DNA of 64,000 nucleotides, taken from contig CM022670.1 of NCBI GenBank assembly GCA_012295275.1, positions 6,696,001 through 6,760,000 on the forward strand. The letters run 5' to 3'. The position numbers and the translations under genes were made by a program. The stretch's first letter is position 1. Every line of letters starts with the position of its first letter. Source of the DNA: Chrysomallon squamiferum (Eukaryota > Animalia > Mollusca). Below, one piece after another: positions 31,896 through 62,500 of this stretch. Below the pieces are notes generated by a model that had not been told where the DNA came from, did no database searches, and saw nothing but the letters and a program-made list of their open reading frames with translations.

Positions 31896-32266
31896 ATAAA
31901 TGTCTTATTGGAAGCTGGTTCGACGAGGAAGCTAGATGAAGGCAGTATTTATAAATACGTTTTAACACAGAATCAGGTGACAAATATTGTGGAACTAAAG
32001 CATACTTATTTGAAAGCTCATCCCAGTTTAATATTTAAAAAAAAAAAAAAAACAGAAAGAAAGAAAAAAAAAATCCCAGATAACGGAAAGAAATGAATGT
32101 ATTAAGAAACCTATCACAAGAATAAGAGAAGAGAGAAAATTAAAATATCGTTATTTTTTAAAAGGGTTTTGTGGGGGTGTAAAAAAAATGTCTAATGAGC
32201 CGCCACCCATTAATTTCACCGGGGCCTGTTTCCCATTCAATAAAACGAAAATTCGCCGACGTTCTC

Positions 32267-32274
32267 TGACGTCA
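32267..32274. promoter_or_regulatory. Palindromic cAMP response element TGACGTCA
   Basis: Perfect CRE inside a CpG-rich patch (32190-32560), about 4 kb upstream of ATG 36404. Confidence 0.35.
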
Positions 32275-32829
32275 TGGAAGCACCCACCACAAAGACGCGC
32301 CAACTGGATGGAAAACTTGCGATTCGATACACTGTCTGATAATAAACTTGATATATTCGCTGATCGAAACAGATCACAAAGGTCGACGACGACCAGTCAC
32401 GTCACATTTGCACTTGCCAGTCCTTTTAGCCGACTTTTCGTCTGCTTTTGTTTATCATATGATTCTACCGGGGTCCAAAATATTCATTACCGCGAAAGAA
32501 ACGAAACGAAACGAAACGTCGTGAAATGTCCATAAAACGAGTCTTTGGACTGAGGGTTCTAGCTACATGATCATCTGAAAAATAATGTTCAGCATAACCA
32601 TCATTATTATTGACCCTGTATCGAGTAAATGTCCTTCTTTTCTATGAAATGTCCTACTGATCTTTGATGAAAAATGCTACAAACTTTGAAAAAAAAGCAA
32701 ACTTTCACATACAATTATAGTTAGAAGGGAAAAACAAGAAGATAAAAAAGAAAAGAAAAAGAAAAGTAAAAAGAAAGAAAGATAAGAAAAGAAATTATAA
32801 AGAAAAGAAAACGGAGAGAAAGATTGCAG

Positions 32830-36403: not shown

Positions 36404-36565
36404 ATGGTGATTGTATTAACACACACCATTGTTTCAGCATTTTTATACATTAGAAATTCGGACAAATTTCATACACATAAGAACTGTCAGGTGCTCGATA
36501 CAGCGAGCACTTCAAAATCAAAAGAATATACAGTGCACCAAGATAATTTGCCATCGTTTTTGGAG
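36404..36565 (+). CDS. PDE2A: PDE2 candidate first coding exon ([17 protein letters not shown]...LPSFLE)
   Basis: ATG at 36404, 54 open codons, then a GAG|GTATGT phase-0 donor matching the phase-0 acceptor at 39471. The N-terminus resembles mammalian PDE2A2 (MVLVLHHILIAVVQFLR, recalled). Confidence 0.75.
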
Positions 36566-36858
36566 GTATGTATTAAATAATAATTTGTTTAAATTCATTC
36601 TAACTTACTTGAATAAACAGAATTAACTATTATATCTTTTTAATGTAATAATGATTTATTACTCCTACTACTACTAATAATTAATTAATACCATTATTTT
36701 TTATTATATACATATATATATATATATTTATATATATTTAATTCTTCACAGATAAATAACATAGTCTCTTTTAGGTTCAGATAATTTTCAGTATTACACA
36801 ATATTCCTGTAAAATTCATTACTTATTACATAATAATGATGACATGATTAAAAAATAC

Positions 36859-36896
<38 letters not shown>

Positions 36897-38250
36897 AGGT
36901 AAAAATACAAAAAACAACCAAAAACAACCAACCAAAACAAAACAAAACAACAACAACAATCATTAACTGATATTTTGTCTGTTAGTTATAAATATATTTA
37001 AGTTATAAAATAAATAATTTTTACTTTATTACAGTTTCTTATATAAAAATGTTTGTGAGGAATTTATATCATTACCATGTTTTACTGATAATTAAAATTA
37101 ATTTAAGAAAAAGACATTTTGTCGTGTTTAATTATCTAATTTTATTTGTAAGTACAAAAAGTATTATAAGAATGAGTCTTTAAATTTTATTCAGTATGTT
37201 ACATCTTTGGTACTTAATATAACATGTAGGTGTTCATGAAATAAAACTTAATACTGTTTATTATGAACATTAGCCAGTGTTTGTTACATTTAAAAAATGT
37301 TATGTATTACCAGTAATTATTTCTAACATTTAAAATTTACAATTTCAAAATTTAATATGTTTTAAAAACATGAAATGTATTGGGTATTTGAACTGAATAA
37401 TCATGTATTACTTGGATGAATTTCTGGTACATATACAACATTTTCACAACTAAAATAGTATCACTATAAAGAAAAAAAATTCAGATTTTTCAGTACATAA
37501 TGTGATTCATCAGTTAATCTGAAGAAAACTATTTAATATGTTTTTCTTACATCACTTTTTCTTTTAAATCTAAATAACTTTTTGTGATTTAAATAAATAG
37601 ATTTGATTTTATGTCACTCAGAAAGCTTTCATTGTTCATATTTAGTAAATGTTATGACAATATGTAACCTTATTTTTTATTTATTTAGTTTTAAATTGTA
37701 TCAATAACACAAATGAAAGAAAAGTACTGAAAATAACTTTCTGTAACCATATAGCATGCTCATAGTTAATCTCTGGTGTGAGCAATTATTTTTGGAATCA
37801 GGTTACATTTTTTTTAATATACTTTTCGATTGGAGCTATAATCCATATTCCGTAATGTGATAACCATGATATTACTTTTAAGTAAAGCACTGGTAACATT
37901 AACATAGGAAATAGTTTTAGTTTTTACAAGAATTTAATGTGCACATCTGTGTTTGATAAAGTCAGATTTATATGGACTTCACATGAGTAGATTAACATAT
38001 GAGGAAGCACGATGAAATACATATACTGAACATGTTTAATAGGGTGTGTCATTTTGGTGTGTCAGTATTGATCATGTTCTTGAAGTATCTTTGTTTTTTC
38101 ATTTCTTTATGTCATGAATTATATTGCTTGCATTAGTCATTTAATGAGATGAAAAGAAAAAGTGAAATATAAATCAGTAATTGTTACAGTACTGGAGTGG
38201 TATTGAAGGGAACTACAAAATATCAGATAGAATTAAAAAATAAATAATAA

Positions 38251-38284
<34 letters not shown>

Positions 38285-41200
38285 AAATAAAATAAAATCA
38301 ACAAACAAGACAAACACAAAAACATATCTTAATTCTAAAGCAGGTGGAATTTTTAGCATATATAATTTTTTAACTACAGATCATTTGTAGTTTACCTACT
38401 CTTGCTACCTTGTGTTTTTTAATCTTCCAAATCAAAATAGTATCTGGTGATTTGTATGAAGCAGCTTCTAATGTTAATAAGTTATTTATTTAGTATTATT
38501 ATTTATTTTGTTATAGTCTCTTTGTCAGATAGATGCTTTATAAAGGTTTTATTGAAATTTTTATTTTTATTTTTATTTTATATCTGTGATTTAACTGATA
38601 TTCAATAATATCTTATACAGGACTTCTTAAACTTTTCTCTACTTGCATCATCTTTGAATTAAACAAAGATTTTCTTTGTTAGGATCACAAAAAAAATATG
38701 TACTAATACTGTGTAAATAGTCTTCATGAGAAATATAGCTTGGTAAGCTAAGCACAGAAATAACTAAATAGCAGAGCTTGTTTTTACTAAAGCTTGAACA
38801 AAAAAAAAAAAAAAAAAAAAATTATAATCCATTTTAATTTAATAACAGAACAAAAAATAATATTAAAAATAAAGGAAAATTATTATTATTTTTTTTTTTA
38901 TTTATTGAACATAATTGTACTACAACAATTAAAACAAAAACATTATTTAAAATTGATTAATACCAATTCAAAATATACGTGCCAAAAGGAATAAATATAT
39001 TGTTGTATGGTGATAAGAATAAAAAGTAGTTACCCAATAATATATTATAAACCAAAAAAAAAAACAATATTTTTTTTTAAATGTTTTTCTTTAAATAATT
39101 TTCCAATCTACATAATATTTACACAACCCCTTGAGGAGTTGTGGGCCCTAGTTCAACAATGTTACCTGATCAATTATGTTTTTACCAACACGATAACCCT
39201 ACAAAATTACATTGTTCTGCTAGTATATATAAGTTCATATCATTCTTAGTTTATTAAGGACATTTTTGCCACATAGATAAATATTCAGTCTTTGTTTTTA
39301 GCCACTTTTCATCCTTTTGTTCTTTTGGCAAAATCAATTTTTTTAAATTTTATATTTTAAGAATGTTTTATAATTAACTATAAAAACATAAATTATGTTA
39401 TACCAGTTGCATTGTGAAAATTTTCCATTATTATTTAAATAGTAAATTAATTATTTCTGTTTGTTTTCAGGAGGCTTTCAACCCACTTCTTGAGGCTAAA
39501 ACAATAGGAGAGCTCAAAGCAGCTATTAATAAGGCATTATTCTTGATTTTTCCACAGCAGGTAAGTTCATTTAGATTGAATGACATTAATTTTAAAAATA
39601 TTTAGTGTAAAACTTTTCTTTCTTCTAAGCAAAACTTGGATTAAAGAAACAATTGCTTGAGAAAAAAAAAAAAAAAAAAGAAAGAAAATGAACATTATTT
39701 ACATGCATGTTTGCATTATTGCAGATAGACAGTTTAGTAATGTTTTGCCTAATATGGTTGAATTTAGTAATTATTTTATACTTTTATTATAACTAAATTT
39801 AAAAAAGAAGAACATTTTTTTTCTTCTTTTAGACAGTCTATCATTAGGAAAATCTTCAGTTTAAACAATTCCTTTATAAATACTTTTTTTGGTTTTGTTC
39901 TGCCAGCAAAACATAGTATTAATAATATATCTATATCTGTGAATTATATAAATATTATACATATATTTTTTTAATCAAGACACTTTTATTACTCTGTACT
40001 TTAAGTGATATATTTATAATGACAGTTATATTTGCTGTAGAAGTAAAAATGAGACATAAAGTTTTGTTCTGTATTTAAAATAACAAGCTTCTGTTTGTTC
40101 TACATTAACAGTTTTGTTTTGCATTTAAAGTTGCACCCAGTTGTTTTCATTTTTTATTTAATTGGACACAGTTCTATTTATACTGGGATTTTTATTTTTT
40201 TTATTTTTTTAAATGTCAGAATTTTAATTGTTCACAATTGAAAATAATCCATTTTTTATTTTATTATTATTTTTCAAAATTTTAATTGGGTATCTAAAAA
40301 TTATCTGCAGTTTGCCATTTTTAAATTTAGGCTGCCAGTACTGTTTACTTGACAAATCCAGATAGCAAATGGATAGAGAGTGAAGATGAAACTACACTGC
40401 CATCTAGAGGAATTCTGTGGTAATGTTAAGATTTCATCACTACTGAAATAAATTAGGACCAATCTGCAACAGCCTAAAAGTTATCATGATTTTAATGTTT
40501 GCAGTCTCTGGGAAATAGGATATAAATCAAACTGTTGGTTGCAATTATATTAATTTTTATATTTTTGCTTCTTTACTTCAGTATTTAGTTTTTATTCAGG
40601 CATTATTAATGTTTCCTGATCATAATATTTTTTTAAATGTTTTGTTAGTACTTTATTTAAAAAAAAATTAATAATAACAAACACACATAATAGCATTAAT
40701 TATCTTTTAAATACACTGTTGAAAAATTTACATTTATTCTATAAACATAGATATATTCATGATGTCAGAACAAGAAGGAGCTTTCTTTTGAATCTTTTAG
40801 TGTAAACAATGAATTACTTGTTTTCTGCTCATGTACGTAGTCTGATGTTTAATATTAGCTTTAAAATTCAATAGGCAAGCTTTTCAGGAGCATGACAAGT
40901 CAGTATATCAAATTCCTGCAAAAGAAGATCCTATAAAATCTGCCCTTGGAATCAAAGCTGTCAATCAAACAGACCCATTAGGTATGCTATTGCATGAAGA
41001 AGATATAGATACATAATCTCAAAAATATATCTTTTGTTCAACAATACGTAAATAGTTACAGTGTTCAAAACTATATGTTTAGGAGAAGTCTAAAATTAAC
41101 ATTTTATAATATCGCAGTTTATTCCACATCATTATAAATTTTACAATTATTCTCTATGATGGGGCATAAAGTTTAATTATTTTGATCTGAATTTGTTCAG

Positions 41201-44034
41201 ACATATTAGTTATTTTAGAATTGCAGATGTCAAGGACAACAGACAGATGTATGTATCTAAATTCTAGTTTGGTAGAGGAAATATTTTACTGCATATCATG
41301 TTTTATTATTTTTTTCTTTCTTTCTTTATTTCTTTTTTGTTTTCTGAATGTAGATTATACATCAAAATATTTTTATTATTATTATTATTACTTTTATTTA
41401 TTTTATTTATTTTATTTTTTTGCACCATTGATGCACATATCTAATATTGTAGTAGTTTAAATATTTTGACTGGCTGTACTTAGAATGTTAGTTGATATGC
41501 ATGCATACATATGTATTTTAAAAAAAAACACTGCACTATCAGGTATATACACCTGCAAATAAACATAAGAACATACTGACTAACATACATATTGTATTTT
41601 TCTCTGTTTATATCTTCAGTTTTATGTGTTCCCATTCAAGAAAGAGATGATAATGTAAATATTGGGCTACTTGTGGTAAGTGATGCATAAACAGATATGT
41701 TTCACAAAAAGTATCGTATGATATTAGTTGTTTTTTCCATGCCTTGAAAATTTGCTTTTTCATTTCTCATTTTACATAGACTTCCTAAGTTCAGATGATT
41801 GTGATATCCATGGCAGTAAATAGTTTAATAGATATAGGACACATGTTGATTTTTCAAGCTCTTGGTTATATAGCTTACAAAGTCTTAGTAAAGATGTAGC
41901 AGATTTGTAAAAACAAATACATATATTTTTTGTTTTATGAAGCTGTGTTTATCTCTATCACTGATTAAACATCAATAACTTTTTACAAATAAAATGTGAA
42001 AATATAGTGTTTAAGTGAGGATGTTAAAAAAAAAAAATGATACCCTACTGCTACAAAATAAATTGTTTTTGCTGTGAATTAAAATTAAATTATTTGATTA
42101 TATTGACTTTTGTGATTGACTCTTGCTATGGGATAATCAGTATTTTATGTTCATCACTGGTGGTAAAATTTATTAATAAGTAAAAATAAAAATAAGTAGT
42201 TTCTGGTAGAAATAAAAACAGTAGTGTTAGAAAAGGAACCATTTATAATGCCAATATATTCGTCAAATCATTAGCAGATGGTTAGATATTATGATAATTT
42301 TTTCTTTAGTATCAATTATATGATAGCAATGTTATATATGTTAAAAATGTGTTGATGTTTGTTTTAAAGTGCTATAATTAATATTTACTGTCACAGGTTG
42401 CACTTCCACCTGGTGTCACCTGCTGTCCACCATCGGTTGAACCTACTATACATTACTTAACTAAACAGGTTAGTTTACTTCTATTACAGATTATTAGTTA
42501 AGTATTTAATGTTTGCAGGTGTTTTAATGCTTTTAAAATATTTGTATTTGAGCTTTCCAAAAATAACAAACAAAAGAAAACAAGAAATGTCTGCATTTAA
42601 CCATTTTGGTGCCATTGGAGAGTATCTTGACATGCTAGATGATTGCTTTTGATGAGATATCTTGTCATGCCAGATGACTGCTTTTGGAAAGATATCTTGT
42701 CATGATAGAAAATTGCTTTTGATGAGATATCTTGTTATGCTAGATTACTGCTTTTGAAGAGATATCTTGTCATGTTAGGAGATTACTACTGGAGAGATAT
42801 TTTGACATAATGCACCAGCTTCAGTTTAGTCCTAATGTTTCATTTAGATAATTTTCCTAAAAATACCTGGTGCTGTGGAGTATGTGTTTAGGCAGAATTT
42901 GGCATCAAAAAGTTTATTATTTCAAAATAGAGATTCCTTGCTTTTAGAGGGAAAAAATGTAATGTATCTGCCAACTGTTTTACATTGCTGATTAATTACT
43001 CGGTAGAATCATTAAACAAAATGAACACTTGAATTACCTAGACAATTGTGCAAATTTGTTTTTTTTAAATGTGTACTTCCAAAGACATATGATTTATTAT
43101 TGAATGACCTTTAGAGATGTCATTAAGTAAAACAAATAAATGAAAGACATTAAATATTTGTATTCCTGGCCATTAATCTTTGTATTATGTCAATGTCAGA
43201 TGGTGTTTAAATGTAAAAAGTATTATTGATAACAAAATTATGTCATAAAGGTTGTGCTGTTTAAAAACATATTAAATAGAAACAAATAAAAATTAGAGGT
43301 AGTCAGCAGTTGGTTTTGTTATTTTGTTGATAAATGTTATTTACTTACCTATGTCATTATTTATTTGGTTATTAATTTCTTTATTTTTCAAATTATATAT
43401 TTTTATGTTTTGTGTATATTTGAAAGACAGTTTTTCCAAAACCTCATATTAATAGTTTTGCCTGACTACATCTGATCATGTAAAATATTCATCACTGCAA
43501 TTAATAATTATACATTTCTCATGTTTGCAAAACATCATGGTCTCATACAAACATTAGCTGTAGTTCAAAAATCCATAGCTAGGTTACCACTAAAAGTAAA
43601 TAACATATATTGTATTGACCATGGTCAAAATATTTTTTTGTATGGGCATTAACTCTAATTTTTGTTTTTCTGCTTCTTTATCTCAGACATAATCAGTGAA
43701 ATATTTGATTACCTTCAGTTTTGAAAACTGTAAAGCAAACCTTAATTCTAACAGAAGAAATATTTTTTAAAGTTAAAATTGACACATTTTTATCTGTAGT
43801 ATAATAAATATTTTTAATATCTATAAAAATAGCAGTAAGAGCTCATTTATATAATAAGCCAGTTAAAGTGAGTGGAGAGAGGACCTATATTAGCTTACTA
43901 ACACCTCCTGGCTAAGTCACAACCAGTGCTAATCATGAAAAAAAAAAAAATTCTACCCCCAAAACAACAAAACAAACAACCCCCAGAATTATATATATAT
44001 ATATATATAAGCATGTGTGTGTGTGTGTGTGTGT

Positions 44035-44065
<31 letters not shown>

Positions 44066-47000
44066 AAGAAACTTAATTAGATTCTAAAAATACAGCTTTC
44101 AGTTTATATCATGTTATCTTGTTTACTAAATAATGAACCTTAATTAAAACATGGATTACAGAATAATACCTAATTGAATATTTATTAACCTGAACATTGT
44201 TACAATGGAGAATTATCTTGTGATTATTATTTTGTGATTTTTGAGGAAGTTAGAAGATACAATATTTTTCAAACATTAAGCTTCAAGGGTTGATAGAATT
44301 GAAATTTTCATTAATACTTCTACAACTGATAAGAATATTAATGTTCACAATCAATACTCTCTCCTTTGCTACATCCTCTATCGAATTTGAAAAATGGTTG
44401 TTTAATTTACCCTTCGCTATGACTGATTGATCAGTGCCTATATTGATTTTGCTGTAGCGTCTGTGTCTAACAAAATCAATTGGTGATGCAAGTGTCCATA
44501 TTGCATTCAATACTTTTGTTTGCTTCATGTGTCTCATTTATAAATATTTTTTTCTTTTTTTCTTCAATGGTTTAGCCTTCTGGTTATAGAACTGGTTCAT
44601 TTATAGATTTGTTACTGACAGCTGGTGATGATCTAACCATCATGCAGGTGGTTTATGTTTGAGCTTATGAAAACTATTCTTCATAATGCAAAATAAAAAC
44701 AAAACAAAAAAACATGCAGAAGAAAATTGCCTTTTTAACGTGAGAAAGCATAAATGTTTTGTACATATGAGTGTGCATGTGTTTCTGTTTATGTTTGCAT
44801 ATTTAAAAGCTTTATGGATGTATGAGTATGCATGTAAATGTACATACCTATTTATGAATACCTTGGTATGGCATTGTTGTAGTGTTTTATTATTTTCTTT
44901 TAATTTCAAACCAGACTTGTCAGATATCTGAAAACTTAAGTGACTGATATACATTTAATATAGCTGCTGTAATATTTGACTTTTTTTATTATTGTTATTT
45001 TCTTTTAATTTCAGATAATCAACACTGTGTGCTTGTATAAATAAACTATAAAACTGTGTAGTTCAGTTTTCTGCATTTATATTTTTTGGTAAAAACAAAT
45101 AAAACTGATAGATGCTGCTGAACAGAATGGTCACTAGAATTTTATAATTTCTCAGTCTTAGTTTATTAATCAGTATTTAACCATGCTAGTGCTTAACAGT
45201 TCTACATATTATTGTAGCCTTTGTTGATACTTCAAAAATATTGTAAAAATATTCATATGTTTTCTGTTAATTATGTTACAAAGTGGTATAGATTATTGTT
45301 TTCAGATATTCAGGACATGAAACAAAGCACACAGCCTGTTTGCATTCTGTTAACACCTTTTTTTGCTGTTATATGTGATCAATAATAATAATGGATAAAT
45401 AAGTTGACAAACATACACCTGACACACCAGACATTTGTTATAATAAACCTTTTGCTTTAGAGATACCAAATTTATTAACCAGAGATTTACTTATCATATG
45501 TTATTTTTTAACTTTCTCTGGCATTGCTATCATGTATTAATCTGTTCCCTCTGATATTAATGCCGTTTTTTTTTTTTTTTTTTTTTCTTCCATGTAATAT
45601 TGTCTATGGTAATGCTATCATGTATCATTTTAAAAACACTAACCTATGGCATATTGAAGAGATAAGCATACTCTTATTTCAGATTTGATGAGCATAATTA
45701 TCATACATTTAACATTTACTGCCATTTATCCTTGATATATTTGTTCCTACTGTACCATGACTGTTTTGAAATATTAACTGTTTATACAGTAAACAGACAG
45801 AATGGTTCCATTTTTTAAAACAATTTTTAAGTCAATAACCTTTAACATGCCATTGTCCATTTAAATAAAAATGTCATTGCAGTATTATTTTTTTTTTTTA
45901 AATATATGACTTAATTCTTGACCACATGTTTAGATTTAATAACAGATAGGTTGTAATACACTGGTAGTTTTAAACAATCTATTATTCACATACTTATTTT
46001 ACATAAAATAAATCATGAATAGTATATTCTTCAATACAGCATCTGTTTTAACTGTCACTTTAACAGTCAGACTATAAATTATAATGACATTTTTTTAGAC
46101 TTAATTTCAGAAGATAAACCCTATTATAACTTGAATTACTTGTCTGAGTTAATATTTCAAGTCCATTAACAAATTATTTCCAAATGCTTTTGAATTTTAA
46201 TTAATCCCAAAGACACTTGATTTAGCTCAACATTATCTGAATATTGATGATAGTTAATAAATACATAATAATTCTGAGTTTAAAAAAATAATAATAATAA
46301 TTAATTAAAAAAAATAGAAAAAAAAATAGAAAAAAAGTTAAAATAAAAAATAAAATAATAATAATAAACTTAAAATGTTTCCTTAAAAGCTGTCATTATT
46401 TTTACTCCATTCACAGCACCAAACCTGAATCGAAGAACCATTTCTTGTCAGTAAGAAAGTACATTTAGAAAATCCATTGTTATTCATTTTAATGGATTGG
46501 TAGGCTAAGGCCATATTTTCATTAAGGAAAAAGCATTTGCTCAAATGACATCACAATGTTTTTCAAGACACAGGTTTTTAACTAAGATAATGTTTATTTT
46601 TATTTTTATTATTGCAGATTTCTTTATGTTATCAAGTGATTAAAAATACTTACACCAGAAGAAAAAGCATCTGTGTTAGTGACACTCACTTCGAAGCTCT
46701 AATTAAATTATGTGGTGAGTCAGCTAAAAAATAAACAATTTGATTTGTTACTTTAGGAGAACATTTTTAAAAAATTTTAAATTTATTTCATTATTATGTT
46801 AAAAAAAAAAAAAAAAAAAAAAAAATCAAAATTCAAAGTGCATGCATAATAAATAAATAAACAAAATAAATAATTAATTAATCAGTTAATACTGATAACA
46901 ACTTATTAACAGGTTTTTTTTTCTTTTTAGGTGAACTTTATGACCAAGATGCTGACACACTACAGATTAAAGTTATTAAATATGTATGTGTTAAACATTT

Positions 47001-48604
47001 TGTTATATATGAGTTTTTAAATTATGGCAGTTCTGATTGTTTGTTTTGTACTTCATTTTTCCTTGAGCCAAGCTAAAACAAATGAAATTTGGTAGATATC
47101 AGGTAATATAATATTATGTATTAACAAGATAATTTTAAATGAAATTTCGTTTCTGATTTGATAAGCTAGTGAAAAACATATTTTATTATTATTATTATTA
47201 TGGTAATTTAAAAGAATATTTGTCTTATTCCATGTTTTTTATAATATTATTGATGTTTTGATTTATTTAACAAATCAGTGCTTATTTGTTTATAATTCAG
47301 TATTGAACTTTGCAAGAAAAACTAGCATCAATGGAATGAAAATAACATTCATTATTTACAGTACTTTACAATAATATATAAAATCAAACAGCATCTGTGT
47401 CTGTATTTGACTTTTTATATATCTGTTTTGGTTTTAAACAGGCTAATATTTTAAACACACTCACATACATATCAAACTAACAGACACACACAGAATCACA
47501 TACCACATACACTAATACATACATACAGTTACAAATATATATCAAATTAATGGAGACACTCACCTACACATTTTAATACACACACACACTTTTTCACACA
47601 TTTACATAAATTTAATGGATTCACATATTTACATGAGATTTTTTTGGTTACAGTTAGAACAACGAACTCAGGCTCAGAGTGCGTTTTTAGTGTTGGTTGT
47701 ACCAGATTCATCTGAACTCTTTTGTCAGGTTTGCATGCTTATTATTAATTTCTTTATAACAGTGAATATTTTTAATGTGTTACCAGTAACAGTACATCTG
47801 AACTTGCAAACTCTTGCAGTAATTATGTTTTTAAAATAAAAATTAGTTTTTTCTAATGATTAATTTTTCAGTTAGTAGTCAATGATTTTGAAATTTTTAT
47901 CCACTGTACCTTTGGTTTGAAATAATTGGAAGTAAAAGCTAAAATGTCAGAATATCCATTTGTATTATTTGTTTTTTACTGAAATTTATTAACTTTGTTT
48001 TTATTTCATAATTAATTATTTTATTTCAATTTGGAATTTTTTTTTGTTTTTTTACCTGTATTTTTATTTGTGAGAGCTACAGTTTTATCACATGAATTTA
48101 TTTCCATTTGTATAATGAATGTGACATTTTTAATTTATGATTTAAATTTTATCTAATTAATGCTGTAATTTAGGTTGTGGGAAGCAGAATTTTACCACAT
48201 GAAGTCAGATTTCCAGTAAGTTCAATAATTCAGAAAATATATTTTACAAGCAGTATATTTAATTTTTATTTTTAACATTTTCTAAGTTAAAAAGTTAATA
48301 GCAGTAACAAAAATACTGGATTAATCACCCATTCTGTTATACTGAATTAATTATACTGGGTTAATTAACAGTTCTGTTATATTGGATTAATTACACATTT
48401 GGTTATACTGGTATAATTACCCATTCCGTTATACTGCCTTAGTTTTCCATCACCAGTTCTGTTGTACCACCAAATTGATTACTGTTCTATTATCATAGAT
48501 TGATTTTCCATTCAGTTGTCATGGAGACTAGATAACAAGTTTGGGAAATGTTTCATGCTGTTCATTTTGCAAGTGGCTCATTAAGTATAAAAAGTAAAAA
48601 AATA

Positions 48605-48635
<31 letters not shown>

Positions 48636-49387
48636 ACTGGTTTGCTTTATTACATGCATTTTCACAGATTAAATAGTACTGAATGTATTTTCAATTTTAA
48701 AAAAGGCTGATGAAAAAAGTTCCGTTTTACAGACCCTTTGTCAATGTAATAATAAAACAAAAATTAAAATTACATTTAGACACATTTTACTATTAAGTAT
48801 GTAAATATCAACATCTACATTTTTAAGATATTCAGTGTTTTTATTTATTAAAAATAAGAAAAGAAAAGGATTTTAAAACCATAAGAACAGAAATGGACAG
48901 CCTGCATAAAAATAGTTTGTTCTTTTAAAAATTTCTTTTAATTTTTGAATTAACATATATTTGACTTTACTGTGTTCGCTGTTCGGGATATTTTTTTTAA
49001 AACAGATGTTTACCTACTTAACCTGTGTCATGTGTAAGCATTTACATACATAAGTCATTCATTTTTTTTAATTATTATTATGTTTTTTTAAAGCATATAT
49101 ATATAAACCCTAAATATTAATTAACATCATTTGAAATAATTCAATAATATAGTCATTGATTTGTAAAATGAACTTGGATTTAAAAATATGAAACATGATT
49201 CAGTTTTACAGTTGTTTTTGAATATAGATCAATTATTTAAATAGTATTAAAATTTATTTTATTGTTTTGTCAGATCTGTCAAAAATAGATATGGTGGTGT
49301 TAAAAATAGATATGATGGTGTGTGCAATGTATTTGTATATAATATGACTAGGTTTTCTATTGCTTTGTTTTTGAATTATTCAGTACT

Positions 49388-49436
<49 letters not shown>

Positions 49437-50555
49437 TAGATATAAAAATTAGAAGAAAAAGAAATAGTACTAGTTTTTCAAATAAACAAAAACAGTACAA
49501 CAGAAAAAAAGAAAAATAACAACAAAAACAAAACAAACACAAACAACAGTGAAATAACATTTTTGGAGCACAGACAGCACAGAAGAGGATTTGCCACAAA
49601 AATTATTTTACTGCAATACTCTTTAAACATAAATCCTTTCTGTTACAATCTGATTAATTATTTAGTTTACAGGATGTCAGCATTTATTATTTTTATTCAT
49701 TTTCATTAGAAACATTTATGGGGAATTTAAATTTACAAGGTAAGATAAGGTTATATAAAAATTTTAAAAGAAAAATGATATTATGATTTGGACATGACAG
49801 ATAGTTGGTGATACTGTAAACTTAGTCATTAAGATTTAAAAATGATTTTATTAAGAAACTGTTAATATTCAGTTTAAGTTGTTCTTTGATTTTAAAATGG
49901 TATTTCTTTTATTTCAGGGACAACAGAGTCCATTTTCAAAAGCCATGGAAACAAAGGAACCTATTGGCTGGGATGAAATTTCACAGGTTTGAACAAGATT
50001 TGTATTTTTATTTATTTATTTACTTATTTTATTTTTAATTTTTAATTTTTTTTTTTAATATTTTTTTTTTGGTAAACTTAGTTACATCATTTAAGTAATG
50101 TATTAAAATAGATTATAAATAGATTATTCATTAATTTGATTTTAAATGATGCCTTTTTAGTGTTATGTTTATTTATTTATTTATTATTATTATTATTATT
50201 ATTGTTTGTTGTTTTTTGGTGGGGTTTTTTTTATACTGTGACAGTAGTGAAAAATTGAGTTTTTGTATTTTTATTTATTTGCCAAAGAATTTTTCTTTTT
50301 CTTATTATTTTCTCCTTTTTTATCATTAGGACATGTGCATGTTATTGGAGAAAATTAAAAAATGTTCTTTCTTACTTAATTTAATCATACATAAAGAGCT
50401 GTATCCATAACTCTAATTTAGTATCAGCAAAATGTATTTGATAAAATTTTCATGAATGTTTTATGCAAAATTTCAGCTGAGGCAATAAAAATGGTAAAAT
50501 GATAAAAATAAAAAAGAGAATATTCTAAAATAAACCCAATGACATATTTAAAAAA

Positions 50556-50589
<34 letters not shown>

Positions 50590-53500
50590 TAAAATGACAA
50601 TGAAAAATTAAAAATACTTAAACAAAAATAATAAAATCACAACCTCTTTCCTATATACTGTAGATTATTTGTTTGTGTTTGTTGTTATTTAAGGATCAAC
50701 AGGCAATGGTGGAAGAGTTGGCAGGAATGAAAATCCGATCTCTGTTGTGTGTTCCTGTGAGGAGGAAAGGCAGTGAAAACCTTGTTGCTCTTGCTTGTGT
50801 GATAAACAAAAAAGGAACAATAGGGTTTGTATGATCTACACCTACAGGGCTTTAGTTTTCAACAACCTTTCTCTTGACATCTCTGTCACTTGTTGCATCG
50901 AGTCTATGTTGACGTATTAAAAATAATATTGCCTACTAATTTGATCTTGCTTAGCCTTCTCAAAAAAGTTTGAAAGTCCTGACAGCTTCATTTTACTCCA
51001 CTAATCGTTCTTTTTTACCCATTTTTTTAACTTGATCCTGAAACCATGCAGTAATATAAACATTTGTTTTTGTATATCTAAATTATCTGTACATTAAAAA
51101 AACATAAGTAGAAAGATAACTAAATATCTAAATTTCTCACATGGCCTGTTTGATTTTTGTTGCCTTAGATTATATTAGATAATTTAAGAAAAATCAGTTA
51201 GTTGCTTTGCAAGAGATCAGTTGTAATTAGAATTAAAATTGAAAGTAAAAGACACATTTTTCATTCAAATTTAGAATATTAATTGATTTGTTTTGATGCA
51301 CATATATTTTATTGATATAATATTTTTTACTTTTGACTTGTTTTATAATTGGTGAAAAATAATGTACAGAGAACGTTGATTCATGATAAGTCAGAAATTG
51401 ACACTATTCACTGTATTTTTCTACTTAATGCAATACTTACTAACTATATTGTTTGGTAACAAAACTTGTCTGTTCTGTTTTTGTTGAAAACAGAAACAAA
51501 TATTGGGAAAACAAATCACTTGACATTAGCCAGTATTTGAATTTTCTATAGTTGCACTCAAACCATGCTCCTTGTGACTTTAATTTGTGAAAAATATTGT
51601 AAGTGGTTTGACATCACTATATTAGGTAAATAACTGCTAGTCATTTCGCTTTACATCACTTTAATATGAATGAATTAACTTTTAGTTTCACAAGTGAAGA
51701 CATTCATGGAATTCGCCAGTGTTTTCAGTATACTGCTACTGTCTTGACAAGCACCTTGGCATTTCAGAATGAAAGAAAACTGAAGGATCAGACACAGGTG
51801 ACTTATATTTTTTATTATGCTTTTAAATATTATTTCATTTGTTTGTTTCTAATGCTGTACTGAACCTTTTCAATAACAAAAATGAAAAAAATAATAATAT
51901 AGAAAATGATTTATCACAGAATTTATTTATTAAATATTTTCTCATCATATCCTCAAAAATCTATTAAAAAAAGAAGAAAATAATGGGATCCCACTGTTAG
52001 AAAAGGTAAATTAAATGACAAAAATAAATAAATTAGTAGATAAAAAAAGAAGAAATTAAAAAATATAAAATTAATTAATAAAATAAGACCCATGCACACA
52101 AAAATCTCAAAGAAATGAAAAAAGATTAAAAGAAACAAATAAGTGGTATTAAAAACTCTCAGATAGTATTTTTTCATTTGAGAATTCTAATTATTATAAT
52201 TGTTTCCTTAATATTTTTGTAACAATTATTTCAGGCCCTGCTGCATGTGGCTAAAAAGCTGTTCACTCGATTAGGTAAGATTCCCTTTCTCTATGATAAG
52301 CGTACAGATGATGGTATATTCTCCCGGTATTTTCATAAACCAGTTGGTCTGAATGAACTTCATTTAGTAGAAAGTTATAATGATGTGCATGATGCCGAAG
52401 ATTTTGAGTTTGTAAGCAGGGATAATCAAAGAATTGTCATTAGCACATTAATGCCAGAGTTGATGGAAAGCATAGAGAAACAGTTGGAGTACCAAGAAAA
52501 GGTTGCAGATAGTCTTCTGGATACCTGTATTCAAAAGACACAAAAACGAAAATATAGAATTCATCCCAAACTGAAATCTTCAAATAGCAAGCGACCTAAA
52601 GATTTGGAGAGTTTTTCTGTTGATAAAGATAGTAATGCATCACCATACAAGAGGAAAACCAGGACAGTATTTGCTATGGAATCAGGACATGGTGATTGCT
52701 CTGTAGGTACAGACACAGATCCAGTATTATCAAGCAGTGGGGAAGATGTTAGTCAGAAATGGTTCAGCCCGTATGATTCAAGTAACTGTCAGCCACTTAG
52801 TCCAGTTTCCAAATCTAATTCTGAATGTGACTTGCCTCATTCCGAGTTGGAAACAATGTATTACGATGTGTGGTCAAAAATGACTTTCAAACCATCTTGG
52901 AAACTTTCTGTGTCAGACTCTTGTCTTCTCAGAAAATCTGTTAGTGTTAGAGAAAGTATTGGGGACAAAATAACATTGGGTACATGTGTGTTACGAATAT
53001 CAAAGAGTGAACCAGTACTGAAATACATCAGTAATCATTTCTCAAGTCCTTGGAACAGCAAGAGCTGTCTAAACCTGGCTTTCTTTGAACCTGAAATTTG
53101 TGACAGTCTGTCCTCTGACAGTGACAGTACAGAGTCTGTGCACACACCACAGAACACAGATCACAAGACTGCTGTAATTGTGGTAGAAGATGTAGACTCT
53201 AGTAGCAAACACACTGTAACAACTAAACCCTCTCCTTCTGTTAGCAGTGTTTGTATAGATGACATACTCACTGAAGAAGACCAAATCACATGGACACCTA
53301 ACACTTGTCTTATAAAATCTATGCAGCCACCAAAGGCAGACGGCATTCTTTTTGAGCTAAGTAGGTTGTTGAAACAGTTTAGAGATACTGGACTGTTCAA
53401 GTTCTTGTTCTTCTTAACCCTTTAGTTTTGATGGACCAATATTTCTGCTGTACAGCTAGAGCCAAAAAATCACAATCTAAACAGTTAATCCATCTATGTA

Positions 53501-56500
53501 AGTAAAACTGTTTGCTGTTGACTGGTTATGAGCCAGTAAGATTCCCAGAGACATCAGCACCAAAAAGTGCAGTAGTTTAGCTTTTCTTGTTCATTTCTAC
53601 ACTTTTTGGCTATATCAGCATAATATGGTCAGTGCTAAAAGGGTTAATCTGTTATTAAACAATGCTGTTATCTCTAACACATTTTATTTGAATGTTGGTT
53701 TTTTGTATTCTTTCTTTTCTTTTTTCTTTTTTTGGTTGATTATTTTTACCTAAATGTTTCTAAAAATGTTCTGCAATGTAAAGCCATTTGCATTTGAAAA
53801 AACATCAATAGGGTCATTCTGTGTCAAATCACCCAGTGGGTTAAACCCGACCATCTCAGATACTACTGGGCCAATCTTCATAAAATTGGTATTGTTGAAA
53901 AGGCAATATGACACGGATTCCATATCTGCCATTATTGTTCAGTTTGGAGAATATTGGGGTACACTGACCTTTTGATCTTTGTAATGACCTTGAAATTGAC
54001 CTGGTGGATCACATTACCTCGAGATGACACTGAATGACCCAGTACCTTTATTTTTAAAGTTGTTTTTTTTCAAATCTTTTAATTATAAATATTAAATCTG
54101 GATATAACACAAAGTTTTAAAAATTATCATTTATATGCATAATACAGAACTATTAATAAAAGTACCTTAACATTAATAAAACTTGTATTTTATATAATAA
54201 ATAGTGTCATTAATGAAATTATTATTAAACATATAGAATATGATAACCATTATGTATTTAAAAATACATTTTTACTTCAAGAATGTTTTGTCTAAAATGT
54301 ACTTTATTCATGTGTTTTATGTTTTGTTTATTTAATTATTTATTTCAATGTTTATTGTTTTAAAATTTTCAGATTAGACATCTGACTTATGTAGGGGCTT
54401 AAAGTTAAAACAAATATTAAAATGTTGATAATATAATAAAATAATAATAAAAATGTTAATAATTATTTAGAATAATAATAATAATAATAAATATGAGATG
54501 CTTTATTAAAATAAATTATTTTTTGCTGAATCATTAATTTCAATTAAAAAATGAAAATGAACAGGAACATCATAACTGAGACAGTGTAAATTATCTGAAT
54601 ATTCATTAGTTCACTTGCATAGAAATGTTAATTAAGGGCCTGTATAAATTAATATTATAATTACTTATTTCTAAACACAAGTATTTATGTCTTCTTAATT
54701 ACAGATGATCTCACAAAATTATTGCGAGAAATTATGCAAGAAGCAAGAAACTTGACAAATGCTGAGAGGTGAATAAATAATTTTATATCAATGTCTGGAT
54801 ACTGATTTAAAGTGCAGTTCATAAAACCATCCAGTTGCTAATAATAAAGTGTGAAGGTATTACAGTTAGTCAGTATCTTCAAGAACTGAAGGCAAAAACA
54901 AATATAATGGTCTGGCACTTTTTTTACCTTTCACTCTGAACTCATGTATAATCATATTGTTAGATAAGAAGTGTTCACTTGAAAACACTCAGAATCTCTT
55001 TAGACATTTAGTTACATGACCACATATACATAAAAAGTTTAGAAATTACTGCAATCAAAGTTTTAAATGAGTTGCTTTTTTTTTCTCTCACAACAGAGTT
55101 GACAGTAATTTATTAGTATAAATCTGATTGTTGACATAACTGTAAATGTTTTCTTTGTTTGTTGTTTTTTTTTTATCAAAATCTTACAGGGTGAAATAAA
55201 GTTTTATTTTCTCTCTACAGATGTTCTGTATTCCTTATTGATGATGAAACTGATGAGTTGGTTTCCAAGGTTTTTGATGGAATCAGTGCCAATGACAGTG
55301 AGGTATAATTATATTTAATCTTGGAAAATTAATCTATGTTACATACCTGTCCTCTCTGAAAGACCACTGGTTTTTATCGATATAGCTGTAGTATTTAAAT
55401 TGTAGTTAATATTTTACTGCTCAAATACAGGTATTCAAATATATTTTCAAATTCATACATACAGGAGATATGTGAAATAGTTACAATAATTGATATTTAA
55501 GTTGACAATTAGAAAACATTTATAATGAACAGAACAGCATGAAGAACTGAAACCTATATATGCATAAACAGCAAACAAACAAAAAAAGATCAAAATAACC
55601 ATAATTTATAAAAAATATTGTAGTAACAGATGTTTATTATTTTTCTGAACCTTGAACCAGACATTCCAATTAATGAAAACCTCTCTTTGCCTTTGTTTGA
55701 GGTTCAGCAGGAAATCCGAATGCCAAAGATGCAGGGAATAGCAGGTCATGTGGCAACCACAGGTAAAATCTTAAATACAAATTTAGTCATTTATTGAAAA
55801 TTTTGATAATACAATTTTAAAATATTTATTTATTTATTTTGATTTATATGAATGATTTTAATGTAAATATTTAGATCTAATAGAAATTATTATTTACAGA
55901 TTGGTGCATCATCTATTGTATGCACTGTTGGCATTTTCACATTAACCAAAATCTTGGATTTCAGATGATTTATAAAATGTATAATCACTGAAAGCGGATA
56001 TTTAAATGGAAGAAAGGTTTTTGTTGTAAGATTAATTTTTTAAAAACACCTCGCAGCAAATATTGACAGAAAGAGATGTAACAGGGACTGATGTGAAAAA
56101 TATAAAGTACAGGTTGGCATCACAAGACACTGTTAGTTATGACAACCTTGCCTTTAACAGACTTTCTTATGTTTATATGAAATTGTATAAGGTATTAATG
56201 ATTATCTAATGTTTTACACACATATACTCCTCACACACACACACACACATTGCTTTTTGTTATAATACATTATTTTGTTGTAATAAATGTTATATTATTA
56301 TAATTTATTTTTTTGTGGTATTTTATTATAATTACTACGTTTTCTGTAATTACTCTAACTTTTCAGACTGATAATAAACATTTTCTTTTCTTTTAAATTA
56401 AAATCTAATCATATATTTTGTTTGATATAAAATATGATTTACTTGATATTTTAGGAAATCTTCTGAACATCACTGATGCCTACTCTCATCCTTTGTTCTA

Positions 56501-59500
56501 CAGAGGAATAGACGACACTACAGGATTCCGAACAAGGTATCAGCTGTTACACAACCTTATTTTTAGTGTTATTTTCATTATTACTGTGCAGAACAAAAAA
56601 AATAATAATATTAAAAAAAAAAAATAGTTTACAAAAGGAAAAAGAACAAAAGTTAGGTAAATATTCATAATTAATAATAAAAGAAATATTTAAACTAAAA
56701 ATAATAAGAATAACTGCTTTATTAAATTTTATTATTATCTCAATGTTTTTTTTTCTTAATTGTTTTTTAAAAGTATAATTATAATATTACAAATGACCTG
56801 ATTTCTGTTTACAAGACTAACATTAAAAATGACAGCTTGATATTTGCTAGCTTTTATAAGGTACATAATTATCATTTGTTTATTTTTTGCAGAAACATTT
56901 TAACATTTCCAATCAAGAATGAAGAAGGTATGTACACACGATCTATTTGTTTATACAAGAGAGTAGTCTGTGTATTAACAGAATCTGATTTTCTTTTGTA
57001 TCAAAATAATAAAAAAAAAAAAAAAAAGCTAAAACAACCCAAAATTTTCATATTAAAATGTTATTAAAAAAAAATAAAAACATTCTTTTATATATATAAT
57101 TAGTTTTTGTTTTTATTAAAATGTTTTTGCAGGTGTAGTGTTGGGTGTGGCCCAGTTGTGTAACAAAAAGACTGGACCATATTTCACAGTTTTTGATGAA
57201 GACATTGCTTCAGCCTTTGCAGTTTATTGCTGTATAAGTATTAGCCATGTAAGCCTGGTTTTCTTTATATTGATCTGTAAATGTACTTGAGACTGATATC
57301 TAAATAGCCCTAGTGTTATAATTTAAAACTGATTGTTCGTATTGTTTTACCTGGTAAATGCTGACACTTGGAATAGGTAAGTATTGTAGTAACATGAAAG
57401 CCTAACAAGATTATTTGTTGTATTTTTACTTGTTAAATGATGGTTGTTGGAACTAGTAAGTGTTGTTGTGATATTAAAATCATAAATTATTTTTGATTAG
57501 CATTAAATATCTTTAAAAATTATTATTCATTAAATACATTACAATGGATCAGATAAGTTGTATGTTGACATGTTTTTTTATTTTTGTTTTCCTTTTATAT
57601 GGATAGTTTTGATTTTATTACAAAACATATACAATAGTTATTGAGAATGAATGTTCTTTTATTTTAGGTTTTTAGGATCTAACCACTTGTGCATGCACAT
57701 TCACACACTCACAAACACATAAATAATTTAATAAGTGAAAACATTTTCTTAGTTTTATTAAATAAAGATGTCTTTTGGTAATCTATACAGTTAAATGTTT
57801 TTATTCTTTTGTAAATGTAAGTATATTAAAAAAAATAAAATAAAAAAATAATAATAATATCCAGTCATTTATTAAAATAATATTTTAAAAAGGAAATTAT
57901 GATTTAACTAAATAATATTAACTAATGTTAAATGAATAGAAGAGGTGAGATACCAAGCATTATACAATTTGATATTCAAACAAGTAAATAAATAAAGTGT
58001 GTTTTAATTGATGTATAGTTTGCAGATCTCAAGTGTGTAGTGTATAAGTTTCTGATTTCACAACACCAATGTGAATTTTATAAAGCTTGTTTGACATTTC
58101 AGTCCCTGATGTACAAGAAGGTTTTAGATGCACAGTACAGAAACCATCTTGCAAATGAATTGATGATGTATCACATGAAGGTACCATAGCAACGCCGTAG
58201 TCCCTTGTTGTTGTGTGACACACCACAGCGCTCTTGTAGGCAGTGTAGCACGGCTCAGAATGTGTAGTTTGTCTGCTGTCTCTATGTTCTGTTTTTTTCC
58301 TTTCAACTGTTTTGTATTTTCAGTGTCTCATGTACAAGAAACTTCAGGACTCACAGCACCGTAGTAAACTTTCTAATGAACTTATGATTTATCACATGCA
58401 GGTTAGTTAGACATTTTTGCTCCTGCTTTCAGTGCTGGTTTATTTTTATTTTATTTTATGTTTTTTTTTTTTTTTTTGCATGGGTGCACTAACTTTCAAG
58501 TTTCAAAATGTTTAATGTTTCTTTTTTTTTTTAACTGGCCATGGCTTTACCCTCTAACCATGGTGGTTGTTTTTGTTCTCTGACTAGAGAATGTTTATGG
58601 TCAGTTTTATGTACCACTATGTAAAGTTCCTGTTGGTTTTAATTCAATATACTGAGAAAATTAGTTTGTTTTATCAGTACCACTAGATCACACTGATTAA
58701 TTCTCTCATGTTGGCTGTTGCATTACCGAATTATGGTGTCAGATAGGCTTCAGTGGAAACTGGTTTTTTCATTAGCTCAAAAGAACTATTTATTTGCTTT
58801 TTCCCACAAACAGGAAATCCTTGGGCATAATAGACTTAGATTACTGACTGATCCATAACAAAGATAAAAAAAATAAAAAATTAAAAAATTAAAAAACAAA
58901 CATAATAAAAATGTTTCAAAATTTATAAAAAGTTAAATGCTATGTGATTTGGGACATCTCTTATATAATAACAAAAATAAATAAATAAAAATAAAATTAA
59001 ATAAAAAATTCAACATGTTAATAATTAAGCTATTTTTAACTTACAGATGTAGAATATAACATAGTGGTACAAAATGAAGTTTAAATATCAGTGTTCTTGC
59101 TCCTTTGTTTCTCTGATAACCTGAGGGAATCTTTAATAAAACTTGCTATGTGGTTTTAACATATATAACATCCAATGCTCAGTGTTTTTAACAGTTGTAA
59201 GTCACGCGTTAAGTGGATTTTTACACATCAGCAAGAAAGCAGAAGTGTGAGTAGTTAATAAAAATACTCAAATTATCACATTACTAATGTTTTGTTTACT
59301 AATACTTTCTATAAGGGTAATTAACATAGACTTAATTTGTCATGAAAATTACAGCTTTCTTATTACAATTAACATAAATGTATTTCTTCTAAACATTAAC
59401 AGTTAATATTAATTTAATATCTAAAGGATATCGTGACATTATTAATAAAATTAACGTTAATTTATGAGGTTAATAGTGGCATTATGGTGAAGTGACATTC

Positions 59501-62500
59501 TTAGTGTAGTTAACATAAATGAAATTTATCAGGTTCGTTGGTGCTGATAGCATTTTTAGCATTATAACAAAGATAACATACATTTTATTTTTCCAGAATA
59601 TACTTAATATTTAATAACCAATAAAAAAACACTTAAAATATTATATAAAATATGTAAACAGGTTGTGTGAAAGTGTATAACAAATTAAAAAAATGAACAA
59701 TTTGCCTTTAACAAGTAATAATTTTCTGATGACTAAGGATTAAATAACATATATAAATTTGGAATAAATCTACATGATAATCAAAGTGACTTCTTTTTCT
59801 AGTATCCTTGTGATAATTTGTTTTGAGTTTATGATTAATGTGATGAGTTACAATGGGAATGGTGTAAATTATTTTACAGAACAGTCACATGATGTTAGTA
59901 AGGTAAGACAAATATACGTAGGCTAATCTAGAAATATCAGCACATTTATTTATAATCAAATACAGCAATCAAAATTTCTCAACATTCATATTGCTTTACT
60001 AAATGGGGGGAAAAAGTAAAAGATCCACCTTCATGATAAAATCTCACATAGTTATTATTAACTGCCTGATACTGTATCAGAATGACCGTGCTCTCTCAAA
60101 GGCTTTGGTGTGAAGTTTCTGAGAATTAAGTGAGAAAGATGATTTATTGATCTGAAATTCACACTTCTTCATAAATACCTGATAACACTAATTGGAAAAA
60201 AGAAACTTGACACTGGAAAGTTTATCTGTGTATAGGTCAGTGAGGTGATGTACAATGTGTATAAAATAACTGAAATGTCAGCAGCTGTAAGGTTTCTGAT
60301 CAGTTTGGTTATATAAATTTTGTATACTCATAAAAGTGGAATGGTTGTCTATGCAGGCTATTTGTTTTGATAAGAACAAGGAATCTTATATATGCACTTC
60401 TATAAGCAGGATAGCACATACTGTTGCCTTTATTAGATTTATCATTGAATAGGAAATTATCCAAAGGTTGCATTTAGGAGGGTTGATCTTGCCATCAATC
60501 ATGATTCATCTGAGCTGTCAAGCTATGAATTATAAAATAATTTAGAGATTGACATGCTTTTTGACACCATAGAAGTGTTCAGAATAAAGAAGGTAAGACT
60601 GAATCAATATTTTTCAGGTTGTAGAGCCAATAGGATATTTAGATCTCTGTTTTAAAAGTAGAACTTTACTAACTAATGAGCACTGACATTTAACAAAGCT
60701 ATTGGTATTGGTGCTGCATGTTCTTTGTTTCTGTGTCGCACATTAATAACAAGTTTCTCTTTCTGATTTCAGCAAACTTGACATCTTTGAAGTACATACA
60801 ATCATTCATTTCTATGTTATTTAATTTATGATTAAAGTTTTCACAACTGATCATTTTTGTAGACATAGAAAAAGTGGTGTAAGTAAGTTTTAATTATATT
60901 TTTCTACACTGAATTTTTTAATTGTTAAAAGTATTCAATGAGGAGTGAACTAAGAGGTAAATAAAATAAAATTCATATTGCTATATTTCAGTTTATCCTG
61001 ATAAATAATGTCTTTGAAGATGAAGATGGTAACTTGGGTATAGACTCTTCTGCATTTGTTTTTGACTGATGATGAAAACATGTTGTTGTATGTACTGTGT
61101 GTCACAGTATAATATATAGTCATATTTAAGTTATGTTTTACATGAATTGGTCAAGGGGTAATGTGAATGTTTTATCTTCTAGGTCTCACCATATGAAGTG
61201 GAGATGTACTGCAAACAAGACATCCCCTCAGTTTATAGTTTAAGTCCAGACTTTGACAAATTCTATTATGCTCCAAGAACACTTCCTGAAAGTGACACTT
61301 TAATGGTAATAGTGTAATACTAAAATACTGCAGCAGAACTTTCAAGTTAAAGCATTATATCTGAAATTTGTGTTTTTATTTCTTTTCATTTTAAATGAAA
61401 TGTATTCAGTTATTTAGAAAATTATTAAAAATAAAGCTAATTACATTATCAATTAATAGTTTATGGTTTAAGTATTGTAACTACAAAACTAATTTTATTT
61501 TGATGTTAGGCATGCATGGCTATGTTTGAAGAGCTGGGATTCATCTCCAGATACAGAATCAGGAAGGATACTCTTACAAGGTATTATTAATATATTTTTA
61601 AAAACTTTGCTTGTAGATTTATATTAATTTGGCAAATAATTTTATGTTTCTATTCTAAAGATTTTAATGTCATTCAAAAAAAAAAAATTAAAAAAAAAGG
61701 AAAAGAAAAGAAAGATTCTAATACATTTATGTTAGTGTGGACAATATCATTTTAATGTTCCTATTTAAAAAAAATAATAATGTTATTAATAACAATTATC
61801 CACAGTTTTACGGACTGAAAATCATTACATCATTGTTTTAAATCAAATAAATATAAAATGGGTACTAGACAATAAAAAAGCTTTTTATAGATCAGGATAA
61901 ATAATTATTATAATAATTATAATACTGGGACAAGATAAATATTGTTTATTAAAAGATTATTCTGAACTGACTTTGCTATTAGTTTTGTGTTGCATACTGT
62001 GCTGTAATTTGTGACTTGCTGTTTACTGACAGGTTCTGTCTGATGGTGAAGAAGGGATACAGAAACCCACCCTATCACAACTGGATGCATGCTTATGCAG
62101 TAACACACTTTTGCTACCTCCTTATTAAGAACATCAAACTAGAAAGATATTTGGAGTAATTACTTTGACATTTTCTTTGATTTTTCTTTTAAACTTGTTG
62201 ATATATGTTGATTATGTATTGTAGTCATACTGTTAGGTACATCTGTGTACCCTGTTAAAAGTTTTGTTCAGTGAACTGTGTTTTAAATCCTTTTTTTAAA
62301 ACAAATAAATACATGCAATAATATGGATAATCTAATAATTTTTGTGCATAACAGTTACACTCAATTTAATAGATACATATACATACAAACATACACCAAA
62401 ACACACACATATAATATTTTTTTTTTTTTTACTGTTATTTAAAGAAATCCATTTGAGGCATTATTTCATCACTGCTTGGTTTACACATCTTGTGATTTAT

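Follow-up and report, generated by a model that had tools for sequence, protein, structure and literature searches.

An alternative 5′ splice site adds a 362-residue, predicted-disordered insert ahead of GAF-B helix 2 in a snail PDE2

In a 64-kb stretch of the Chrysomallon squamiferum genome (64,000 nucleotides, hereafter the window), an exon of only 40 nt is followed by a long reading frame that runs on past its 5′ splice site, which raises the question of what, if anything, that frame encodes. The original prediction placed a hidden ORF of ~380 codons here, and the frame is open for 383 codons beyond the canonical donor at 52274|52275. From stop to stop it covers 52223-53425 (+), a total of 400 codons, and is the longest of the 14 ORFs of at least 120 aa in the window. 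The probability of a frame this long staying open, computed from the ORF's own base composition, is ~1e-12; among 2000 shuffles of its bases, the longest run without a stop had a mean of 67 codons and a maximum of 200, and the other five frames of the region carry between 13 and 46 stops each. The extension is also, as had been claimed, richer in GC than its surroundings (0.386 against 0.17-0.34 in the adjoining intron bins) and free of tandem repeats. The second donor that had been proposed, CTAA|GTAGGT at 53360|53361, lies in the same phase as the first, since the spacing between them is exactly 1086 nt or 362 codons, and splicing from it would continue without a stop into the exon at 54705.

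By sequence, the host gene is PDE2, the cGMP-stimulated class I phosphodiesterase. Window exons align with PDE2 of Gigantopelta aegis at ~63-100% identity, as befits a gastropod related closely to that species, Pfam GAF and PDEase_I domains are found in the product with the tandem GAFs preceding PDEase_I, and PDE2A is the top PDB relative both by sequence and by fold. The metal-binding catalytic motifs are intact (HNWMH at 62076, CHDIDH at 62546 and ATDLAHH at 63673), with the last exons lying beyond the window end. The canonical 40-nt exon (52235..52274, +) encodes the end of linker helix LH1, equally the first GAF-B helix, and aligns with residues 387-400 of the G. aegis short isoform. Several other features of the gene were observed. 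Between GAF-B and the catalytic domain a duplicated exon pair (58103-58183 and 58324-58407) encodes two versions of the LH2 helix; RNA contigs connect each of the two acceptors to 57248, and alternative records with one or the other version exist for G. aegis, oysters, scallops and mussels. The pair are likely conserved mutually exclusive exons in an allosteric helix. In an intron of the N-terminal region, a 35-nt unit is repeated 5.6 times in tandem (42615-42808). Farther upstream than the exon at 36404, positions 32032-32535 hold an open frame of 167 codons (..MSNEPPPINFTGACFPF..) that may serve PDE2 as an alternative first exon. The region before GAF-A (36404-47000; residues 50-215 of protein P0008) was modelled with high pLDDT as a further folded, GAF-like alpha/beta domain.

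To ask which donors are used, we drew on short-read contigs from four RNA runs of one study (X1-X4), together with a fifth run of unrecorded kind (X5). The 40-nt exon is spliced on both sides in all four RNA runs. The proximal 5′ splice site, TAG|GTAAGA (52275..52276, +), which encodes Gly-Lys when read through, forms a GT..AG joint in X1-X4; this junction was recorded as joint 52272>54703 with a cut of +2, i.e. 52274>54705. The RNA-seq check that had been proposed for the extension gave cover over 52275-53360 in every run (partial in X3 and X4), and the distal 5′ splice site (53361..53362, +) is joined by a GT..AG junction, 53360>54705, in X1 and X2; it was unseen in the contigs of X3 and X4, whose gaps in coverage carry no weight as evidence. 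One acceptor, that of the common downstream exon at 54705..54768 (+; DLTKLLREI..., GAF-B helix 2), serves both donors, and the exon measures 40 nt via the proximal donor and 1,126 nt via the distal one. The exon thus has two GT donors in use that share an acceptor and preserve the frame, as in an alternative 5′ splice site. The optional extension (52275..53360, +) is 1,086 nt long and encodes a Ser/Asp/Glu-rich insert of 362 aa.

A single RNA contig of 1,116 nt spans 52245-53360 in both X1 and X2. It begins 30 bases into the small exon, at the point where the spliced upstream contig ends and branches, and the intron upstream of the small exon is uncovered in these two runs; for both reasons DNA carry-over does not account for it. 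In the X3 library a contig crosses 51769-52237 in that intron, from pre-mRNA or intron retention. The junction records have 30 letters on their shorter side, one below the 31-letter bridging rule, and the evidence consists of separate contigs joined by 30-letter overlaps rather than a single molecule running from GAF-A to GAF-B; within the limits of short reads, the topology fits one mRNA carrying upstream exons, extension and downstream exons. Contig depths (upstream, long and short) were 44.7, 35.7 and 11.6 in X1 and 12.5, 6.5 and 9.0 in X2, with one figure per contig, so that isoforms are not quantifiable; they would suggest a large share of the long form and no internal start, and we do not count them as evidence. 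Past the distal donor, low-depth contigs continue in 4/4 runs over the 21-codon read-through tail to the stop (53361..53425, +), which is intronic in the long isoform. Comparable low-depth contigs lie over other introns, as is expected from pre-mRNA.

Is the insert peculiar to this snail? Conservation in relatives had been named as a check, and homologous inserts do occur at the same site. A protein search with the insert alone gave a sole match, G. aegis PDE2 isoform X2 (45% identity over 97%), whose junction, ...FEL-N-DLTK, is the same as in the window. Two further protein searches used the insert with its flanks, insert length being measured at the site. Among the 93 proteins of the first set, 14 have a same-site insert (two gastropods, ten bivalves, one chiton and one sea cucumber) and 75 a single junction residue; the four that could not be anchored are the query, an Argopecten record starting inside the insert, an Elysia model without GAF-B and a truncated cuttlefish record. 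The second set comprised 29 new proteins (P0094-P0122), the 13 weakest new matches being left out. Two of them carry an insert, Asterias (329 aa) and Saccoglossus (203 aa); six vertebrate proteins, one ctenophore and one insect protein have none, a pseudoscorpion model has six residues, and the remainder are poorly anchored or not PDE2. The two sets together yield 16 same-site inserts of 122-708 aa, 13 of them from molluscs (gastropod, bivalve and chiton) and three from ambulacrarians. Fifteen of these 16 start with G-[EKR], which is what read-through of a GT(A/G)AG donor encodes, and records of the long as well as the short form exist for six species (G. aegis, Mizuhopecten, Dreissena, Ostrea, C. 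gigas and C. virginica). The original prediction knew of no vertebrate equivalent; the insert is absent from all nine anchorable vertebrate proteins (three shark and six others), in agreement with a 2025 review (PMC13095499). The protein searches retrieved no long form from caenogastropods, heterobranchs, Patella or cephalopods, which is weak evidence of absence because such searches return cluster representatives.

Profile comparisons extend the relationship. With a bivalve-only HMM the window insert reaches 41.8 bits, while the best of 300 shuffles reaches 9.0, and a gastropod-plus-chiton HMM recovers 9 of 11 bivalve inserts, missing Dreissena and Ruditapes. By this comparison the mollusc inserts are homologous across gastropods, bivalves and a chiton, and the three ambulacrarian inserts are homologous to one another. 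For homology between the two groups, one test speaks in favour and three against. The final 30 residues of the window insert align with Saccoglossus at a score of 32 (0/444 control windows) and with Asterias at 23 (0/570), via W[TS]P[SNG]T...[QE]PP, a segment that was chosen after inspection and whose match holds mainly for gastropods. The link was not significant by whole-insert HMM, by tail HMMs (best Saccoglossus, 5/1000 shuffles) or by collinear mollusc PSSMs (142, 272 and 360 of 1000). Insert HMMs gave no match to nine nematode N-termini or to the Elysia tail. Searched against Pfam, the insert hit no family above the cut-off (only DUF4842, E 0.24); an ESM Atlas search gave no usable match, and tblastn against phages, of little relevance here, none at all. 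One of 50 candidates in a metagenome scan (L001; 46 aa, 33%) was judged a chance match.

What the inserts share is a series of short motifs, collinear across molluscs, between spacers that vary freely (inserts of 122-708 aa): QxxLAxxL, HPKxKS, SPY, [FY][FYH]DxW, SxSD, RxSxS[ED]P, LNxAF, IxVED..HT and QPP/IQVP. The patterns were written after inspecting the sequences, so the shuffle expectations given below flatter them. M1, of QxxLAxxL type and predicted to be helical (52475..52519, +), occurs in 9/16 inserts against 0.40 expected, the Potamilus matches lying within a repeat. A basic cluster at 52562..52657 (+) combines M2, HPK[LIV]KS, with M3, SPY[KR], each in 8/16 inserts (expected 0.00 and 1.54), and contains what we take to be proline-directed kinase-like sites. 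The most conserved motif is M7, LNxAF (53069..53083, +), with NxAF in 15/16 inserts (all 15 molluscan) and 0.69 expected. M8, IxVED...HT, a predicted beta-hairpin (53174..53224, +), is found in 13/16 (0.16 expected), and M9, W[TP]P[SN]T...[QE]PP / IQVP, lies just before the second donor (53291..53332, +) with its QPP-type form in 12/16 (0.06 expected). IQVP and LQPP presumably resemble the calcineurin LxVP motif, and IxVED the PxIxIT motif. All the motifs quoted in the original prediction are present; relatives share RISKSEP, YKRK (in the form SPY[KR]) and the stretch that follows KRKYR (HPKxKS), but not RKSVS or SPVS.

Two of the motifs suggest particular partners. M6, RISKSEP (52994..53014, +), matches as a sequence pattern the 14-3-3 mode II consensus, RX[aromatic/S][+](pS/pT)XP (PMC9523730). 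The strict consensus occurs in 4/18 inserts (0.06 expected), the relaxed form [RK]x2-3S[ED]P in 11/18 (1.45 expected) and RxSxS[ED]P in 13/16. M4, [FY][FYH]D[AVT][WF] (52856..52876, +; 10/16 inserts, 0.37 expected), is FFAT-like; it and the ambulacrarian [FY][SH]DA motifs resemble FFAT motifs, which bind VAP, score low when good, and for which examples are available for comparison (PMC9213790). Scored with an adaptation of a published matrix that takes D/E at position 4 (Table EV4 of PMC7705450), M4 is the best conventional FFAT site of the window insert at 3.0, a score that 64/300 shuffles equalled or bettered. Saccoglossus (1.0; 0/300 shuffles), Asterias (1.5; 2/300) and Potamilus (1.5; 2/300) score better, Liolophura (6.5), Pinctada (4.5) and Ruditapes (4.0) poorly; pooled over 18 inserts, which are not independent, p is ~2e-5. 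For phospho-FFAT sites, with S/T at position 4 and a threshold of 2.5 or below from the same table, the best scores were 5.0 in the window and 5.0 in G. aegis, 7/18 inserts fell at or below the threshold and the pooled p was 0.12. With the conventional site of the window weak and the phospho-FFAT threshold not reached there, ER tethering is a lead only.

To see where the insert would sit, we used AlphaFold monomer models of the short and long forms of G. aegis, a homologue rather than the window protein. In the short-form model the insert site is a six-residue turn (397-402) between the LH1 helix (353-396) and a GAF-B helix (403-418), and in protein P0002 the Pfam GAF-B (782-924) starts at the first residue after the insert. 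The long-form model gives the homologous insert pLDDT below 50, in keeping with predicted disorder, except for the M1 helix (253-272, ~50-55) and the M8 hairpin (strands 499-508 and 513-522, ~50-58); M9 stays below 50. GAF-A, GAF-B and the catalytic domain keep high pLDDT. At the end of LH1 it is ~62 in the long model against ~74 in the short one, which fits some loosening there, in models of which the long one was slightly degraded by the misplacement of the window insert row onto GAF-B in alignment A1 (1/54 rows). The insert is thus predicted to loop out of an existing turn and to leave the folded domains intact.

The explanations open to such a frame can now be weighed. A transposon, a retrocopy or a functionless chance ORF might account for an insert with no Pfam family above the cut-off or Atlas match and with mostly non-synonymous variants. 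Pfam, the HMM check that had been suggested, found no transposon domain; X5, which behaves as DNA from another individual, has a depth of 55 over the insert against 51 in the flanks; and same-site homologues in three mollusc classes, together with the spliced junction, already refute this explanation, to which we give next to no credence. A very high-copy repeat does lie close by, at ~53760-54010 in the intron just past the second donor, with an X5 depth of 47,000-62,000 against ~55 in its flanks. Single-base variants number five within the insert; four are missense, including one in M8, and one is silent, with no nonsense change, a roughly neutral ratio. At 52524 and 52547 all five runs read A against the C of the window, one of these differences being missense and the other silent; the C residues are an individual allele or an assembly error. 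Two indels in X5 bear on the last of the three models in the original prediction, a truncated, dominant-negative GAF-A-only protein ending at 53425. Low-depth RNA contigs beyond 53360 in all four runs, an ATTAAA at 53654 and the low-quality Elysia model, with GAF-A and a long tail in place of GAF-B, speak for such a product; but contigs of this kind are what pre-mRNA would give, the insert HMMs find no match in the Elysia tail, and whereas the 15-nt deletion at 52344, within the spliced insert, is in frame, the 7-nt insertion at 53412, between second donor and stop, shifts the frame of the tail. This model has little support and is highly improbable. An internal promoter yielding a GAF-A-less isoform that starts within the extension fared little better and we regard it as improbable: there is an in-frame ATG at 52451, Argopecten record P0071 begins inside the insert and contigs cannot reveal start sites, but the Met at 52451 is Ile in G. 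aegis, the Argopecten Met is absent in two other scallops, the contig of X1 and X2 is continuous onward from 52245, where it branches off within the exon, and donor read-through joins 15 of the 16 annotated inserts to the upstream exon.

This leaves the remaining model, a 362-aa in-frame insert reached through the second donor, as the best supported of the three, with the RNA junctions and the homologous annotated isoforms in its favour. Less well supported is the uncoupling of GAF-A from GAF-B that it included: the insert enters a turn between helices, and both GAFs fold in the model. A stronger version, in which the spliced insert acts mainly as an allosteric uncoupler that detaches GAF-B from LH1/GAF-A and leaves the enzyme cGMP-insensitive, constitutive or silent, possibly with M8 and M9 packing back on GAF-B, is doubtful. 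The insert does lie between LH1 and GAF-B, whose cGMP binding activates PDE2A (PMC6392808), its most conserved motifs cluster in the 120 residues adjoining GAF-B, and confidence at the end of LH1 falls in the long model. Against this, the site is a pre-existing helix-turn-helix break, M8 and M9 are modelled at the low confidence noted above, and insert length varies about six-fold; the uncoupling role is in any case compatible with docking.

That the spliced insert is a real protein isoform is therefore very likely in our view, and we consider it probable that the alternative donor adds a 362-aa loop before GAF-B helix 2 that serves as a docking platform. The proposed sequence of events is as follows. 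Use of the distal 5′ splice site lengthens the PDE2 exon from 40 to 1,126 nt and places 362 residues in the turn before GAF-B helix 2, in an isoform that likely retains dimer, cGMP sensor and catalytic domain. The predicted-disordered loop would then be a phosphorylation-controlled docking platform, its two copies per dimer binding 14-3-3 through phospho-RxSxS[ED]P; since PDE2 is dimeric, it could offer a pair of sites to a single 14-3-3 dimer. Other partners may be recruited by LNxAF, by the IxVED hairpin, by the QPP tail and perhaps by the FFAT-like site. Docking would bring the enzyme to a different compartment, and could make the joint between LH1 and GAF-B looser. How much PDE2 is plain and how much anchored in a given tissue would then be decided by splicing, a task that alternative N-termini perform in vertebrates. 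We infer a scaffold or targeting function, possibly involving VAP and the ER. A bolder extension, that a long PDE2 is ancestral to bilaterians, was kept in molluscs, echinoderms and hemichordates and lost in chordates, and acts as an FFAT-like ER-contact-site tether under 14-3-3/kinase control, is speculative and we think it unlikely; if true, PDE2 would originally have been targeted by splicing within the tandem GAFs rather than by a choice among N-terminal exons.

Cross-talk from cGMP to cAMP takes place mainly at PDE2, and the diversity known among its isoforms lies in N-terminal targeting. The design seen here differs, in that a conserved choice of splice site puts several hundred predicted-disordered residues between the folded parts of the tandem GAF region. 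It offers a natural test of how tight LH1/GAF-B coupling must be for cGMP activation, whose mechanism, according to the 2025 review, has yet to be confirmed (PMC13095499). It also supplies old linear motifs (LNxAF, HPKxKS and the IxVED hairpin) and bears on work on cyclic-nucleotide signalling in oysters, mussels, scallops, abalone and starfish.

Close counterparts among known systems are the long PDE2 isoforms already annotated for molluscs, echinoderms and Saccoglossus, such as those of G. aegis (isoform X2), Haliotis rufescens (isoform X1) and Asterias amurensis (isoform X3), with the same site and the same donor read-through, and with motifs that are homologous within molluscs; these are automatic, unnamed database predictions. 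In the open full-text literature, the scope of our search, no description of a long PDE2 isoform was found. The long form is thus apparently a conserved splice variant of a known enzyme, present in automatic annotations and undescribed. Vertebrate PDE2A1/A2/A3 (PDB 3IBJ, 9LRN and 1MC0) have in common with the snail enzyme the tandem GAF-A/GAF-B, the linker helices and the catalytic domain. The review describes three vertebrate splice variants directed by their N-termini (PMC13095499); there too splice variants set location, but the variable part is N-terminal, whereas in the snail it is 362 aa long and lies within the protein, where the cGMP-sensing GAF-B begins. In PDE6 the GAF-B beta1-beta2 loop is enlarged and has been implicated in allosteric signalling (PMC6392808); unlike the snail insert, that loop has 34 aa, occupies a different position, is constitutive and lies in ordered form on the catalytic domain. 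A further parallel is with giant or elongated exons, where, as in snail PDE2, a folded protein gains a disordered segment with motifs through the optional use of long exonic sequence. The giant exons of ankyrins are cassette exons, whereas in snail PDE2 an alternative donor extends a tiny exon. In giant ankyrin-B a giant exon codes for a disordered region (PMC7401806), and long internal exons commonly encode disorder (PMC9825244); but where giant exons add to an unconstrained linker, the snail PDE2 extension interrupts the helical spine of an allosteric enzyme.
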